Below are positions 4,122 to 10,315 of a stretch of DNA of 29,602 bases, piece after piece. Under the pieces are notes generated by a model. The model was not told where the DNA came from and did no database searches. It saw only the letters and a list, made by a program, of their open reading frames with translations. A program made the position numbers and the translations under genes. Source of the DNA: a virus. Its lineage: Duplodnaviria > Heunggongvirae > Uroviricota > Caudoviricetes. The stretch is taken from positions 1 to 29,602 of the IMG/VR virus record IMGVR_UViG_2740892234_000018; one strand, given 5' to 3'. The first letter of the stretch is position 1, and every line of letters begins with the position of its first letter.

Positions 4122-4443
4122 GAAACCAGAACATGCACACACAAAAAAACCGCTTGCCATGCCGCAATCAGTCAGGTTACATTTCCGCTGCACCTCACAA
4201 AACGGGTGCCGGGTTTCGCAGCCTGCTGACTACACAAGCGCACAACCGCGCCAGCGGTTTTTTTGTGCGTACTGTATTGCCACGTTTTTTTCGCGTCAGA
4301 ATTATGGCGGGGCGTACGGGGCCGACTTCGGTCGGGCCGGGTTCTTGTGTAGCCGGTACTGCGAACCTCGTACGTCTCGCCACCCACAGTTTCGCAGCTC
4401 TGGATGGTGAGTTTTCACAACTTACTACACAAGGGGCCACACC
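4122..4443 (+). other. Structured non-coding region (possible small RNA or leader)
   Basis: No convincing CDS. Two TTGCCA-N17-(TTACAT / AATTAT) promoter-like motifs; a 76-nt GC-rich element 4306..4381 with a 13-bp closing stem and an inner CCGAC-UUCG-GUCGG hairpin; repeated GTTTCGCAGC and ACTACACAAG motifs. Confidence 0.3.
4244..4264 (+). terminator. Rho-independent terminator-like hairpin
   Basis: AACCGC-gcca-GCGGTT perfect 6-bp stem followed by a run of seven T. Confidence 0.6.
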
Positions 4444-4746: not shown

Positions 4747-5136
4747 ATGATTGACCGTCACGACTTCGTAAAATGGGTGCGCACACAGGACACCCGTCTG
4801 GCCCCAAAACTTCAGGCAATGTTTGATTTTTATCTCCGTGCCCGCGCCAGCCGGGCACGCACCACAAAACCGGAGAACGCAGACACCCTTTATTTCACCG
4901 TGGACGACTGTTACCGCGTAGCCTTCACGCCACAAGGTCTGGCCCTGTACACCCTGACACCACACGGCGACTCCCTGCTGGCGTATTACAACTCCCCGGC
5001 CTCCGTATTTGCGGCAATGCTGGCGCATCGTACCGCTGGCGGGTGTGCCTCGCTGAGTGAATACACCACTGAATTTAACCGCCTTTCCGTCATCTTCTCG
5101 CAGGAGTGGCAGCGCGTGACGGGATACCAGCCATGA
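4747..5136 (+). CDS. Hypothetical early-region protein upstream of gene A
   Basis: 129 aa; stop overlaps the ATG of gene A (ATGA). Confidence 0.55.
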   Translation: MIDRHDFVKWVRTQDTRLAPKLQAMFDFYLRARASRARTTKPENADTLYFTVDDCYRVAFTPQGLALYTLTPHGDSLLAYYNSPASVFAAMLAHRTAGGCASLSEYTTEFNRLSVIFSQEWQRVTGYQP

Positions 5137-7973
5137 GTGAGTTTGCATGGAGCTGGAATGAACCGCAGCCAGCTATTGATCCGGACGACTTCGCGAACTT
5201 CAGCCAGTTGCCAAAAACCGGACTGCAACGCGCCATTCGTTACTACTATGAGGCGGACAAAAAGGCTCAGGAAGAACAGGATGCGAAGGAAGAAGCCTTT
5301 TTCGCACAATCCGCCATGGGTAAAAAACTCATGGCATCCCTTGAGGAAGCCGGGCAACGCGAAAAACTGATAAAAAACATCATCAGTAAGCGCCAGGAAA
5401 TAAAGCAAGACCCGGTGGCCTGCGCCTTTGCCGAACTGAAGGCACTTCCCGTTTATCTGCGAGACCCCCTGAGCCGCCGCCTCTCTTTTTTACGTAAGAA
5501 GCAGGAATCTGACCGCCAGAAAGGAAAAAACGCCAGGCTGGCAGAACGCTATGCACAAGGAACCCTGCTCAAAATATTCAAACGTCTGAAACGCACTGAC
5601 GGACGCTGGCTGACACCGTGTTATTGCTCCCTTGCCGGACGCGAACGCCTGGACGATTTGCTTTACCTGCCGCAGCTCAACAAACACCAGATACAGACGC
5701 TGGCCACCATGACGGCGGCGATGTTCAGCAGCACTTTTGAAACACTCTGCGATAACTTTGGCGCGACCGATGGCGAGCTGACCATGAAAATTGCGCTGAA
5801 GGCGTATCAGATGCTGGCCCGCATGGCGTTACATCTGCACACCATGCCGCCGCATTACGAAGCACTGAGAACGGACAAAGACCGGAAGAACGCACCGAAT
5901 ACGGAGCTGCTGCCGGGTGCCATCCTTCGCCTGACCTGTGCGGAATGGTGGAAACACAAACTGTGGCTTTTACGTTGCGAGTGGCGGGAAGAACAACTCC
6001 GTGCCGCCTGTCTGGTTTCCAGAAAAACATCACCCTATCTGAGCCAGGACGCGTTAAGCGAGTTTCGCGCACAGCGCGAGAAAACACGCGATTTTCTGAA
6101 AAGTTTCATGCTGGAAAATGAAGACGGGTTCACGATTGATCTCGAGACGGTGTATTACGCGGGAGTAAGTAACCCGGTTCACCGTAAGGCAGAAATGATG
6201 GCCACCATGAAGGGACTGGAACTTCTGGCCGAAGCCCGTGGCGACAGAGCGGTGTTTCTGACTGTCACCTGCCCGTCAAAATACCACGCAACAACGGAGA
6301 ACGGTCATCCGAACCCCAAATGGAACGGGGCCACCATGCGCGACTCCAGCGATTACCTGGTTAACACGTTTTTTGCGGCGGTCCGCAAAAAACTGAACCG
6401 CGACGGTCTGCGCTGGTATGGCATCCGCACGGTGGAGCCTCACCATGACGGCACTGTGCACTGGCATATGATGGTCTTTGCACATCCGGACGAGATTGAA
6501 ACCATCGTGTCCCACGTCTGCGATATTGCCATTCAGGAAGACCGCCACGAGCTGGGCGATGACATAACTCCGCGTTTTAAGGCGGAGTACGTAGACGGCT
6601 CAAAAGGCACACCAACCAGCTACATCGCCACCTACATCGGAAAGAACCTGGACAGCCGCGCCGTGGATGGCATCGACCCGAAAACGGGCAAGCCACGCGT
6701 TGACCACGAAACCGGAAAATCAATGGCCGAGAGCGTGGAACGCGCCATCGGCTGGGCGCGCCTTCACCGGGTCCGCCAGTTCCAGTTCTTTGGTATCCCC
6801 TCCCGTCAGGTGTGGCGTGAACTGCGCCGCCTTGCCAGCCAGATGGCACGCAACCCGGAAGGCCCGCAACGGCTGAAGGATGACGCAATGGACGCGGTAC
6901 TCGCTGCCGCTGATGCCGGATGTTTTGCCACCTACATTGAGAAACAGGGTGGCGTACTTGTTCCACGCAAAGACTACCTGATTCGCACCGCCTACGACCT
7001 CGCAGATGAGCTGAACGATTACGGTGAACAGAGCGTACAGATTTACGGGATCTGGTCGCCGCTCATTGGGGAGTCTTCCCGCGTATGCACGCATCCGGAT
7101 AACTGGAAGCTGGTAAGACGCAAACCGGAAGCGGAAGACAGCGCCCGCGAAAATGGTTTTGACCTTCAGGGCGGCCCTGCCGCCCCTTGGACTCGTGGCA
7201 ATAACTGTCCCCGTGTACAGGAAACAGACAACAACGGGACAGAACAGCCGGAAGAACGACCAACATCGTGGCTGCAGCTCCCTGACGGCGTTGAAGTGAA
7301 CGAATGGATGCGCTCACTGAAACGACACGAACGCCGGGCGCTGATGCGTTCGCTTCGTGACAAACAGGCAAAAAACAGCAGCGATGAAATGCAGAGCTGG
7401 ACACAGAGCCGCAAACAGCCGCGGCCTTTGCCTGATAACCACGAGTTACTCGCTAAAGAATGGCGGGAGTCTGCTGAATCTCTCGGCCTGCATATCGGTG
7501 AACAGCAGATGCAGCACCTGTTACGGGGCGGCAGTCTGTACGTTGACGGCAGCATCATTGCACCGCAGGGATTTGAAATTGTACGCAAACCGGATACCCG
7601 CCCGGACAGCCGAATCACGCAGCTCTGGCAACGCCTGAGCCGTAATCACGGCGTAAGCAGCACGGAGATCCGCCATAACCCGGTCGCCAGCTATCTGGAA
7701 CAGCTAGGGGCATCAGACCCCGAAGCCGCCGCACGCCTGGCATCCACACTTCAGCAGGACCAGAACACCATGAAAACCCCCGTTACCGTGCTTTCTGACA
7801 TGCTGCGCGCCATCCGTGACGCAGAGCACGCACAGAGAATCAGTGAAACCACTGAACGCGCCCGCCGCAAAGCAGACCTGCTGCGGAGTGGCCTGACCAG
7901 TGGAAACAAAAAACAGACAGAAACGGGATTCACAAATCCCGTAAATGAGCAAAAAACGCGCCAAAAAACATGA
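5133..7973 (+). CDS. A: Rolling-circle replication initiator (P2 gpA family, HUH endonuclease)
   Basis: HUH motif VHWHMMVF and catalytic tyrosine pair in SYIATYIGKN (Y-x-x-x-Y). Start taken at ATG 5133 rather than the track's GTG 5106. 946 aa. Confidence 0.9.
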   Translation: MSEFAWSWNEPQPAIDPDDFANFSQLPKTGLQRAIRYYYEADKKAQEEQDAKEEAFFAQSAMGKKLMASLEEAGQREKLIKNIISKRQEIKQDPVACAFAELKALPVYLRDPLSRRLSFLRKKQESDRQKGKNARLAERYAQGTLLKIFKRLKRTDGRWLTPCYCSLAGRERLDDLLYLPQLNKHQIQTLATMTAAMFSSTFETLCDNFGATDGELTMKIALKAYQMLARMALHLHTMPPHYEALRTDKDRKNAPNTELLPGAILRLTCAEWWKHKLWLLRCEWREEQLRAACLVSRKTSPYLSQDALSEFRAQREKTRDFLKSFMLENEDGFTIDLETVYYAGVSNPVHRKAEMMATMKGLELLAEARGDRAVFLTVTCPSKYHATTENGHPNPKWNGATMRDSSDYLVNTFFAAVRKKLNRDGLRWYGIRTVEPHHDGTVHWHMMVFAHPDEIETIVSHVCDIAIQEDRHELGDDITPRFKAEYVDGSKGTPTSYIATYIGKNLDSRAVDGIDPKTGKPRVDHETGKSMAESVERAIGWARLHRVRQFQFFGIPSRQVWRELRRLASQMARNPEGPQRLKDDAMDAVLAAADAGCFATYIEKQGGVLVPRKDYLIRTAYDLADELNDYGEQSVQIYGIWSPLIGESSRVCTHPDNWKLVRRKPEAEDSARENGFDLQGGPAAPWTRGNNCPRVQETDNNGTEQPEERPTSWLQLPDGVEVNEWMRSLKRHERRALMRSLRDKQAKNSSDEMQSWTQSRKQPRPLPDNHELLAKEWRESAESLGLHIGEQQMQHLLRGGSLYVDGSIIAPQGFEIVRKPDTRPDSRITQLWQRLSRNHGVSSTEIRHNPVASYLEQLGASDPEAAARLASTLQQDQNTMKTPVTVLSDMLRAIRDAEHAQRISETTERARRKADLLRSGLTSGNKKQTETGFTNPVNEQKTRQKT

Positions 7974-8018
7974 AGTGCGCACAAAACAGGCAAAAGCGGG
8001 ATTTCAGAATCCCGTAAA
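7925..8018. repeat. Two copies of a 21-bp hairpin motif GGGATT-N4-AATCCCGTAAA
   Basis: Copies at 7925..7945 (inside the 3' end of A) and 7998..8018 (just upstream of the ParM-like gene); each contains the dyad GGGATT/AATCCC. Confidence 0.6.
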
Positions 8019-8049
8019 CGATTAATTAATCAACATAAGGAAAACCGAC

Positions 8050-9009
8050 ATGAAAATTTACATCGACGACGGCTCCACCAACATCAAGCTGGCATGGACT
8101 GAGAACGGCGAACGCCGCAACGCCATCAGCCCGAACAGCTTCAAGTCGGAATGGTCTGCGCCGTTCGGTGGCTCGCAGCCTGCGAACTACATGCTTGATG
8201 GCGTGCGCTATGGTTTTGATCCGGTCAGCGATCGCTTTGTCCAGACGACCGACACGCAATACCAGTACAGCGATGTGAATGTAATCGCCATTCACCACGC
8301 GCTGGTCAAATCAGGCATCACACCACAGGAGGTGGATGTGGTTGTCACCCTGCCACTGAGCGAATATTTCGACACAAACGCACAGCCGGACATGGCCAAC
8401 ATCAACCGCAAAAAAGCGAACGTTATGCGCCCGGTGGAGTACCAGAACGGTGAGGCATTCACTATCCGTAACGTGCGGGTTATGCCTGAATCCATTCCGG
8501 CTGGCTTTAAAGCACTGGCTGACATGAGTCCGTTTGAATCCCTGCTGATTGTGGATTTAGGCGGAACCACGCTGGATGTGGCAAAGGTTCAGGGACAACT
8601 GGCAGGTATCAGCCAGGTGTTTTGCGATCCACACGTAGGCGTTTCCCTGATGGCCGATGCCGTACTGTCGGTGATGGCCACTAACGGTATGCGTACCAGT
8701 CACCACATCGCCAATACCATTATCGAACATCGCCATGATGAAGCCTGGCTGCGCCAGCACATCCACAATGACGCGCATTACAACAGCCTGATGGCGGTTA
8801 TTCGTGAAAAGGAAGAAACACTGAAACAACGCGTGATCCGCGCGCTGGCGGTTTTTTCGGGTTACGGGCGGGTGATGGTTGTCGGTGGAGGGGCGGAGAT
8901 TGTGGCACCCGCTATCCGCGAAGCCTGCGGAGTTAATGCGACTTTCATCGCAGACGGGGTGCCACAGTTTGCTCTGGTTAATGGGCTGTACGCAATGGAC
9001 AAGGAGTAA
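8050..9009 (+). CDS. parM: ParM/StbA-family actin-like ATPase
   Basis: MKIYIDDGSTNIKLAW N-terminus plus SPNSF, YSDVNV, HHAL, MPESIPAG, DLGGTTLD, GGGAE and LVNG blocks, as in recalled plasmid R1 ParM. SD AAGGA upstream. Confidence 0.85.
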   Translation: MKIYIDDGSTNIKLAWTENGERRNAISPNSFKSEWSAPFGGSQPANYMLDGVRYGFDPVSDRFVQTTDTQYQYSDVNVIAIHHALVKSGITPQEVDVVVTLPLSEYFDTNAQPDMANINRKKANVMRPVEYQNGEAFTIRNVRVMPESIPAGFKALADMSPFESLLIVDLGGTTLDVAKVQGQLAGISQVFCDPHVGVSLMADAVLSVMATNGMRTSHHIANTIIEHRHDEAWLRQHIHNDAHYNSLMAVIREKEETLKQRVIRALAVFSGYGRVMVVGGGAEIVAPAIREACGVNATFIADGVPQFALVNGLYAMDKE

Positions 9010-9013
9010 ACCA

Positions 9014-9325
9014 ATGACGACACCAACCAGACGGATAAGTTACTATCTGAAGCCCGCCGCCGTCAAGAACGAAGGCGAAGCATGCGCATGGCTGGACAGC
9101 CTTACACCAGAAGCCCGCAAAAGCGGCCAACGCGTGGCTTTTCTGGCCGGGCTGGCACTTCTGAAAATGAATCCAGCAGAGGCTTACCGACTGGCTGCAT
9201 GGGCTGACGATGAGGCGTTATCAGTGACACAAACCAGGATAGAATGCCCCGCGTCACAGCCAGTATCAACCGCACAGATAACCAGTCAGATGGCCGGAAA
9301 TATCCGGGCGTTATTTCCCGAATAA
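9014..9325 (+). CDS. ParR/StbB-like small DNA-binding adaptor (putative)
   Basis: 103 aa immediately after the ParM-like gene; SD AAGGAG. RRISYYLKP...LDSLTPEAR...AFLAGLALLKMNP...IRALFPE parallels recalled ParR. Confidence 0.6.
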   Translation: MTTPTRRISYYLKPAAVKNEGEACAWLDSLTPEARKSGQRVAFLAGLALLKMNPAEAYRLAAWADDEALSVTQTRIECPASQPVSTAQITSQMAGNIRALFPE

Positions 9326-9330
9326 CACAA

Positions 9331-9354
9331 CATCAGGGCGCATCCGCCCTGATG
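9331..9354 (+). terminator. Hairpin downstream of the ParR-like gene
   Basis: CATCAGGGCG-catc-CGCCCTGATG 10-bp perfect stem; weak T tract, so only a possible terminator. Confidence 0.4.
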
Positions 9355-9423
9355 ACTTTAATCCGGGAACATAAACAAGGGGGACACAATGCAACACATT
9401 GACAGAGAAAAAGGAAAAAAAGC

Positions 9424-9831
9424 ATGAACAGAAAACAGAAACAAGAGTTGAAATACTTCTTACGTAAAGAAATTGCCAGGCTTGAAGATGCAGAGTCACA
9501 ATCATCAGAAATTCCGTTCGGAATGGATATCAACGACGCCCGTATGCTTCAGGCATACCGTATAGCTCAGGCTGCACTACAGACAAAACCGTTAAATAAC
9601 ATACATGAAAAGTATGATTATTTTACGGATACCGCTTGCTTGCTGACATCTGAAGAACAAAAGATAGCCCAACTTTTAGGCGACGCATGGAACCTGTATT
9701 TAACATTGCCAGTTGAGCATCCAATGGGTAGAGATGAATTTTGCCGGGCAATTCATCATTGCCAAAATATGGTGTTGGCACGCCCGGCCATCAGGGCGCT
9801 GGCCAGGAAGGGGCAAGGCTATAAAAGATAA
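9424..9831 (+). CDS. Hypothetical protein (orphan cargo gene next to cos)
   Basis: 135 aa; preceded by a 12-codon mini-ORF (9389..9427) that has its own SD and overlaps the start; followed by a strong terminator. Confidence 0.6.
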   Translation: MNRKQKQELKYFLRKEIARLEDAESQSSEIPFGMDINDARMLQAYRIAQAALQTKPLNNIHEKYDYFTDTACLLTSEEQKIAQLLGDAWNLYLTLPVEHPMGRDEFCRAIHHCQNMVLARPAIRALARKGQGYKR

Positions 9832-9834
9832 GTA

Positions 9835-9861
9835 AAACGCCCTCCTCCAGGGCGTTTATTT
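9835..9861 (+). terminator. Rho-independent terminator
   Basis: AAACGCCCT-cctcc-AGGGCGTTT 9-bp stem followed by a T-rich tract. Confidence 0.75.
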
Positions 9862-9864
9862 CAA

Positions 9865-9892
9865 TGCACAATAGTGCACAAATTTGCACAAT
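9865..9892. repeat. Three direct copies of TGCACAA
   Basis: aTGCACAAtagTGCACAAattTGCACAAttttttt, with about 10-bp phasing. Confidence 0.5.
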
Positions 9893-9895
9893 TTT

Positions 9896-10262
9896 TTTGA
9901 ACGACTTTTTACCCTTCCGGCCCGCATGGCGGCTGGATCCGTCAAGGATCCGTGCGTGCACAAAAAAACGCGCTTTTTCTGCGCGCAGGTGACGGGGGAA
10001 CAGCCCGCGTTTCAGGGGGTAAATAGCATCCCCTGAACGATATCGCAGCGACACAACAGAATGGCTGTATTTCTCACGCTGAGCGTGAAAAAGACGTGAG
10101 GGCTTTTGATTTGATGGGGTGAAAGGTAAGGCCGTCAAAATCGCACTGAGACGGCGAGAACATGCAGTCAACGCGGTGGGATTGCGTAAGAGTCTGACTG
10201 TCGATGATGGCAATAAGCAGGAAAGCGTCGTGAAATTATCTGATTGATACAAGAGCTGGAGA
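9896..10262. other. Candidate cos / packaging region
   Basis: Non-coding stretch immediately upstream of portal gene Q, where P2-like phages carry cos. Contains GGATCCgtcaaGGATCC and a G-rich 19-mer GGTGACGGGGGAACAGCCC (9988..10006) loosely resembling the recalled P2 cohesive end. Confidence 0.35.
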
Positions 10263-10265
10263 GTC

Positions 10266-10288
10266 GGGGCATAAATTTTTTATGCCCC
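10266..10288 (-). terminator. Palindromic hairpin downstream of Q
   Basis: GGGGCATAAA-ttt-TTTATGCCCC perfect 10-bp stem 28 bp past the Q stop; no clear U tract. Confidence 0.4.
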
Positions 10289-10315
10289 GGCGAAGCAGCA
10301 GACAAGCGAAGCGCG

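Follow-up and report, generated by a model that had tools for sequence, protein, structure and literature searches.

Type II DNA-segregation loci (ParMRC) are known from plasmids R1 and R100 (parA/stbAB) and from IncFII, IncFIA and IncL/M plasmids. They code for an actin-like ATPase, ParM, and for an adaptor protein, ParR, and carry a repeated site, parC, in which two blocks of about five iterons flank the promoter. ParR binds to parC and in this way regulates its own operon, as in R1 parA. A comparable pair of proteins is encoded by CGP3, an integrated prophage of Corynebacterium glutamicum: AlpC is actin-like and its adaptor AlpA binds repeats upstream of the operon. The alpA and alpC genes are induced early, the phage DNA does not reach its full copy number without both of them, and the authors argue against a role of AlpAC in segregation to daughter cells (PMC4446434). 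Here, we describe a parM–parR cassette of a P2-family prophage of the Escherichia coli type, IMG/VR record IMGVR_UViG_2740892234_000018. The window analysed is the whole stretch of 29,602 nt (29.6 kb).

The cassette comprises parM (positions 8050–9009, + strand), coding for an actin-like segregation ATPase of 319 amino acids, and parR (9014–9325, + strand), coding for a ribbon–helix–helix (RHH) adaptor of the StbB family of 103 amino acids. It resembles the R1/R100-type loci in the order of the two genes and their spacing of 2–4 nt, in the protein families, in the nucleotide-binding motifs, in the presence of a repeated site upstream of parM, and in a ParR with an RHH N-terminus and a C-terminal NIxxLFP tip. 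Judged from its sequence, it is an intact type II cassette of the plasmid R1 StbA/StbB family. The differences concern the carrier, which is an integrating P2-like phage instead of a plasmid; the length of ParR (116–146 amino acids in the plasmid systems); and the upstream site, which is composed of two 42-nt repeats with palindromes of 18–20 bp, with no recognizable promoter between them, unlike parC of the R1/R100 type. The original prediction had placed a ParM/StbA actin-like ATPase and a small ParR-like protein here, behind two hairpin motifs and in a P2-like context; its coordinates, its motif and its open reading frames (8050–9009 and one ending at 9325) are confirmed, and the profile searches support both protein assignments.

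Phage P88 (Xuanwuvirus, Peduoviridae) matches most of the window at about 96–97 per cent identity, and we assign the window to the P88-like (Xuanwuvirus) prophages. Essentially the same element occupies the same position after gpA in P88 (gp17/gp18), in Citrobacter phage PhiSM and in other Xuanwuvirus members; in the segment 7800–9500, nucleotide identity is 97 per cent. There is no material difference between these copies and the cassette of the window; what differs in this prophage is its immunity region, its tail fibres and the cargo that follows parR. The genes are named in the RefSeq record of P88 as ‘plasmid segregation protein ParM’ (gp17) and ‘partition protein’ (gp18). The class has also been noted in a survey of the gpA–gpQ interval in 18,150 E. 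coli P2-like loci, where about a quarter of the P2-like phages have a putative partition system between gpA and gpQ; StbA + Plasmid_stab_B arrangements are listed in its supplementary tables (Rousset et al. 2022, PMC9122126). The cassette is thus already annotated and noted in the literature, and its annotation adds nothing new; the partition genes are not the unexpected finding that the original prediction took them for. When the searchable literature was examined for functional work on the cassette, only mentions in annotation tables came up, and no experiment on its function was found there.

Both domains of ParM are present at full length: StbA_N at residues 1–157 (Pfam, 5.4e-82) and the ParM C-domain at residues 159–316 (6.8e-69). 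The protein also matches phrog_691, ‘partition protein’, of PHROG (5e-90), and the structure of R1 ParM in PDB (1mwk, E 1.8e-93), with residues 1–316 aligned to 1–318; in NCBIfam, there are only sub-threshold matches, to the Bacillus-type ParM and PRTRC models. Full-length identity is 47 per cent to the R1 type and 52–53 per cent to the IncFII and IncL/M types. Residues D6 D7 G8 S9 T10 N11 I12 K13, E147, D169 G171 G172 T173 T174 L175 D176 and G279–A282 are invariant with respect to three plasmid ParMs. They form the phosphate-binding and adenosine motifs DDGSTNIK, E147, DLGGTTLD and GGGA, whose catalytic roles we take to be those established for R1 ParM.

No protein of the region is more conserved than ParM, which keeps 94–99 per cent identity at loci where gpA falls to 61 per cent and ParR to 53–56 per cent. 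The ratio of non-synonymous to synonymous substitution rates (dN/dS) of parM is 0.044 with respect to a Hafnia copy (dS 0.61) and 0.06–0.17 with respect to closer copies, and the gene is under strong purifying selection. The phage ParMs form a separate and tight clade, with at least 94 per cent identity inside the clade and at most 53 per cent to any plasmid copy. The ParM of D6, a 91-kb P1-like phage-plasmid, is 48 per cent identical to that of the window.

The parR gene likely starts at the ATG at position 9014, 7 nt after AAGGAG (9001–9006), and the resulting product of 103 amino acids matches gp18 of P88. It belongs to Pfam family Plasmid_stab_B (PF10784, 1.3e-23) and to phrog_2515 (1e-56). 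Searched as a single sequence against PDB, ParR matched no solved structure; a profile built from prophage and plasmid ParRs (alignment A1) matches the structure of pB171 ParR/StbB (2JD3, 3.5e-9). In a set of 26 prophage variants, 55–94 per cent identical, conservation is seen in the N-terminal RHH region (RRISFYLKP ... QRxAFLAGLAL) and again in the C-terminal tip, NIRALFPE, whereas the linker between the two is rich in P, A and Q and evolves freely. The tip N96-I97-R-A-L-F-P102 is found in all the prophage variants and resembles the tips of the IncFII (NIKNLFPD) and IncL/M proteins. This is the pattern that would be expected of an adaptor with a DNA-contacting end and an opposite end for ParM. 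An AlphaFold2 model of the monomer, based on the 26-sequence alignment, predicts a helix at residues 87–100 with low confidence; with a predicted local distance difference test score (pLDDT) of 56, the model does not have the quality that a fold search requires, which is unsurprising when one chain of an obligate, intertwined RHH dimer is modelled by itself. The parR gene evolves faster than parM (dN/dS 0.22–0.65).

The two 42-nt direct repeats upstream of parM are 79 per cent identical, and their starts are 73 bp apart. Repeat 1 (7907–7948, + strand), found as direct-repeat family D1, inverted repeat I1 and an exact palindrome match, is a candidate parC repeat; repeat 2 (7980–8021, + strand), supported by the repeat and palindrome searches and by a seven-locus alignment, is a candidate parC repeat or operator. 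The motif of the original prediction, GGGATT-N4-AATCCCGTAAA, is found at 7925–7945 and 7998–8018. In full, the palindromes read ACGGGATTcacaAATCCCGT in repeat 1 (7923–7942), within the last codons of gene A, and CGGGATTtcagAATCCCG in repeat 2 (7997–8014), 36 nt upstream of the parM ATG in the spacer between the two genes. Their common core is CGGGATT-N4-AATCCCG. This palindrome, with 14 specified bases, has exactly two perfect matches in the window, and with up to three mismatches allowed none of 100 shuffled sequences gave as many matches as were observed. In two complete genomes, that of P88 and that of a second P88-like element, NZ_CP148288.1, the motif is present upstream of parM alone.

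Both repeat blocks are conserved in the seven-locus alignment, including the Hafnia locus (L006), where gpA is only 61 per cent identical; the variable part is the segment between the repeats (about 7957–7979). The GGGATT/AATCCC cores are almost invariant, with single changes in P88 and in locus L004, while the loops vary freely and the outer positions of the arms change without compensation. A protein-binding site therefore fits these data better than an RNA structure does. The half-sites are 11 bp apart, and the centres of the palindromes are separated by 73 bp, or seven helical turns. A modest 10.5-bp periodicity of A is present in the segment 7900–8035; 27 of 2000 shuffles, and 18 of 1474 windows taken along this sequence, attained the same strength, and it is similar to that of the IncFII and IncL/M parC sites and below that of R1-type parC. 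Analysed with the same tool, the R1-type, IncFII and IncL/M loci have two blocks of 10–11-bp direct A/T-rich iterons. The window does not show this R1-type architecture, in which the promoter is flanked by two blocks of about five such iterons each. The two-palindrome site can be read as a variant parC site, with the membership of the proteins in the ParM/ParR families maintained, and we infer that ParR dimers-of-dimers would bind the palindromes.

Two other interpretations of the palindromes were considered and rejected. A P2-type replication origin is unsupported: the nick site of P2 is located 427 nt inside gene A and not at its end, the P2 ori sequence is unmatched in the window and the palindrome does not occur near gene A in P2, although the origin used by the P88-type gpA lineage was not located. 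Intrinsic terminators of the + strand are unsupported too; there is no T-run 3′ of the hairpins on that strand, and they score on the minus strand only, where there is no gene to terminate.

The site could also have a regulatory meaning only, with ParR and the palindromes being a repressor and its operator and ParM having no role in segregation in the phage. The presence of only two candidate binding sites, one of them beside the start of parM, would suit such a remnant, as would the autoregulation known for R1 parA. We find this very improbable, as parM exceeds the other genes of the region in conservation (dN/dS 0.04–0.17) and has all of its ATPase motifs intact, and the presumed ParM-binding tip of ParR is conserved.

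The cassette follows gene A (5106–7973, + strand), which codes for a replication endonuclease of the P88 type (955 amino acids; Pfam Phage_GPA, 6.7e-128). The stop codon of gene A is at 7971–7973, and the spacer between gene A and parM is 76 nt long. To the left of gpA are the integrase, a C-like helix–turn–helix repressor and Cox; to the right of the cassette, on the opposite strand, are the portal and the large terminase. The cassette interval is thus the gpA–gpQ (cos-proximal) interval of an integrase-bearing P2-like prophage, as the original prediction had it. The P2 cos sequence has no match in the window, and the position of cos is set by synteny with gpQ alone.

The original prediction regarded the two genes as accessory cargo of this interval. 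Their distribution shows instead that they are fixed companions of one type of gpA. In the phage collection, 14 records have a gpA 84–93 per cent identical to that of the window, and this ParM is found in precisely those 14. The 370 other P2-like gpA records are less than 60 per cent identical (about 40% in those listed), and none carries it. Among 5426 complete E. coli genomes, parM (counted at a coverage of at least 80%) is present in 1279 and the P88-type gpA in 1323; parM accompanies about 97 per cent of the E. coli genomes with that gpA. The same gpA–parM–parR arrangement is seen for all of the divergent variants of ParR, which come from E. coli, E. albertii, Hafnia and Salmonella. The possibility, foreseen in the original prediction, that these are ordinary core genes of most P2-like phages is half right: they are core in this lineage, about a quarter of the P2-like phages of E. 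coli, and are not found in most P2-like phages. With presence tied to one gpA lineage and variability starting only after parR, the cassette is a constant component, kept by selection, of the replication module (gpA–parM–parR) of the temperate P88-like phages and not cargo of the hotspot.

The P88-type gpA itself has a lineage-specific C-terminal extension of about 140 amino acids (residues approximately 812–955, window 7540–7973). The other P2-like gpAs, among those listed, align only to residue approximately 811 and are without it. Its occurrence matches that of parMR perfectly, and candidate centromere repeat 1 overlaps its last codons.

The gpA–parM block is kept with two different head modules, in which the portal is either 99 or 30 per cent identical to that of the window. 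A mosaic junction is observed at parR: in some E. coli and E. albertii prophages, parM is 98 per cent identical to that of the window at the nucleotide level and parR only 64 per cent (window 9014–9325, compared with L004 6001–6315 and L011 4965–5276). In these prophages, the downstream portal and terminase are only 30–35 per cent identical in amino acid sequence. The divergence of parR, portal and terminase beside a nearly identical parM implies that the gpA–parM block was recombined onto a different P2-like head module. In a scan of species-representative genomes, close relatives were found only in E. albertii, Salmonella and one ‘Vagococcus’ contig, and the remaining matches were ParMs of the plasmid type (47–52% identity). 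The contig labelled Vagococcus sp. (L012, NZ_JBQPOM010000071.1) carries a P88-like prophage of the E. coli type, with ParM 97 per cent and portal 99 per cent identical to those of the window, and the assembly is probably contaminated or mislabelled.

The gpA–gpQ interval is a documented defence hotspot of P2-like phages (PMC9122126), and the ParM of the window shares 47–52 per cent identity with ParMs that occur on common plasmids of the IncF and IncL/M groups. On this ground, the cassette might be a weapon of lysogenic conversion, which excludes other phages or destabilizes rival plasmids through partition incompatibility. We regard this as improbable. None of the features of defence cargo (variable presence, a match to a defence family, a transcription unit of its own) was found; PADLOC gave no match for ParM, ParR or the next open reading frame, and the cassette is fixed and co-oriented with the early operon. 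The phage exclusion suggested in the original prediction is thus left without support. Moreover, the palindromes are unlike the A/T-rich iterons of plasmid parC and the β-strand of ParR differs from that of plasmid ParRs, so that a cross-reaction with plasmid centromeres is unlikely.

Promoters and terminators were assessed by consensus scans. No terminator-like site was found on the + strand after position 4341 up to the cassette, and no promoter-like site between 6472 and parM. As parMR is on the same strand as gene A, without an intervening terminator or a recognizable promoter, it is most likely transcribed with gpA in the early replication operon. In P2, orf91 has the same co-oriented position after gene A, whereas tin and old, which are genes of lysogenic conversion, are on the opposite strand with transcription starts of their own, unlike the cassette. 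Directly after the parR stop codon there is a GC-rich hairpin (9331–9354; inverted repeat I13, 10-bp stem, 100% complementary), a terminator-like site that is probably the end of the transcription unit.

We propose that the cassette is a functioning ParMRC machine of the replication module and that its substrate is the phage genome as a free circle, following infection or excision; the probability of this reading is estimated at about 0.55. ParR dimers would bind the two palindromes, and binding may spread over the A-rich flanks, which have the period of the helical repeat, to form a centromere complex that is possibly also an operator. The conserved C-terminal tip of ParR would capture the ends of ParM filaments, and polymerization of ParM would push or position the phage DNA circles. 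Expressed with the early replication operon, parMR would be active while the phage genome is a free circle; replicating copies would be separated or placed and passed to both daughter cells, which is distinct from the stable upkeep of a plasmid prophage. Action on the free circle is favoured because of the placement in the early operon and the precedent of CGP3.

CGP3 is the best functional analogy, as an actin-like ATPase and a DNA-binding adaptor encoded by a prophage. It differs in having the adaptor gene first and 24 short alpS repeats (TTAAnnG) instead of two palindromes, and in being a large cryptic prophage of a Gram-positive host. As far as described, AlpA and AlpC are outside the StbA/StbB families, and the likeness is one of description and not of sequence comparison.

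A more specific version, which we put forward tentatively, is a replication-coupled ‘phage genome spindle’, expressed with gpA, that places or separates newly made phage circles. In that case, gpA might be functionally coupled to the cassette, as suggested by its lineage-specific extension, the last codons of which overlap the first repeat of the candidate ParR site. Such a spindle would be a cytoskeletal step, similar to that of AlpAC, in the life cycle of a small temperate coliphage, and could also increase the proportion of lysogens among the daughter cells.

Several observations weigh against action on the free phage genome. Replication of the P2 type gives many copies in lytic growth, and the benefit of a machine that pushes two bodies apart is not obvious. 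There are only two palindromic sites, compared with about ten direct iterons in plasmid parC, and the candidate centromere could be an operator only. The palindrome arms and the β-strand residues of ParR are both nearly invariant, so they offer no covariation signal to link the one to the other. A possible weak promoter, TTCAGA-16-ATTAAT, was read in the sequence over palindrome 2, and would allow expression in lysogens. Finally, one complete P88-like genome, NZ_CP148288.1 (L020), was deposited as a circular plasmid of 34,461 bp; either an episome that is stably kept or a phage replicating after its excision could have given this record. This element, from an E. coli isolate from a cat, carries int, C, cox, gpA, parMR and all of the structural genes.

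The last record bears on the idea of a phage-plasmid, raised in the original prediction and also suggested in a single sentence of Rousset et al. 2022 (PMC9122126): the cassette would ensure the persistence of the prophage as a low-copy plasmid, which is the canonical function of ParMRC. P88 and NZ_CP148288.1 both carry a gene of the Hok/Gef family, the other stability module of the R1 type. There are also temperate tailed phages with partition genes that are true plasmid prophages with plasmid-type replicons: D6, with its StbA-type ParM, and Burkholderia phage KS14, which has P2-like structural genes, RepB and a type I ParA and is without gpA (PMC3091744). The phage of the window, in contrast, integrates and replicates via gpA. 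It codes for Cox, a C repressor and an integrase, and PhiSM, which is temperate, and P88 are described as integrating phages (PMC6456863). The sole replication protein identified is the rolling-circle nickase gpA, not every small early open reading frame having been profiled.

The distribution of parM points in the same direction. In the complete E. coli genomes, 1441 of its 1443 places are chromosomal and two are on plasmids, and only seven of 72,556 plasmid records match, most of them large replicons with an inserted prophage. A match in a Shigella boydii ‘plasmid’ was rejected as evidence of an episome; it is a linear prophage fragment riddled with insertion sequences. Neither of the two traits of a phage-plasmid, an extrachromosomal state in its hosts and a plasmid-type initiator without dependence on integration, was supported. 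Among the 72,556 plasmid records, NZ_CP148288.1 is the one circle made up of the phage only, and a single record of this kind would also be expected from an excised, replicating phage in an assembly. Given the chromosomal locations, the few plasmid records and gpA as the only replication protein, stable plasmid carriage does not appear to be the normal state of these phages, and we consider plasmid maintenance an unlikely function of the cassette. This explanation, the weapon and the regulatory remnant are each less well supported than action on the free circle, and our best guess is that the cassette stabilizes or positions the free phage genome.

The Hok/Gef-family gene lies near the other end of the prophage in P88 (34928–35068) and NZ_CP148288.1 (1291–1431), and is not found in the window. 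P88-like phages thus hold homologues of both stability loci of R1, parA (ParMR) and parB (hok/sok).

Similarity to P88 breaks just 3′ of the hairpin at 9331–9354, with an indel of about 300 bp and a different set of open reading frames. The slot between parR and the portal (9326–10315) contains the truly variable cargo. In the window, it holds an open reading frame of 135 amino acids (9424–9831), whose halves match phrog_660 and phrog_13916 and which has no match in Pfam or PADLOC; several hairpins follow it. P88 and many E. coli prophages have in this slot an insertion of about 300 bp encoding an open reading frame with a zinc finger of the ClpX type.

Two other regions of the window have no megablast similarity to P88, the immunity region (1–2310: int, C and cox) and the tail-fibre region (beyond 22393); the remainder is 92–97 per cent identical. 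Given these two regions, the prophage is probably heteroimmune to P88 and may differ from it in host range.

About one-quarter of complete E. coli genomes carry the cassette in an integrated prophage. The presence of a plasmid-segregation motor under strong purifying selection in an integrating phage poses a small and well-defined question about its role, and P88 and PhiSM are culturable phages amenable to standard E. coli genetics. If the cassette has a role in replication or positioning like that of AlpAC, cytoskeleton-assisted phage replication would extend to small (about 35 kb) temperate coliphages; if it serves episomal carriage, the line between integrating phages and phage-plasmids would be blurred.

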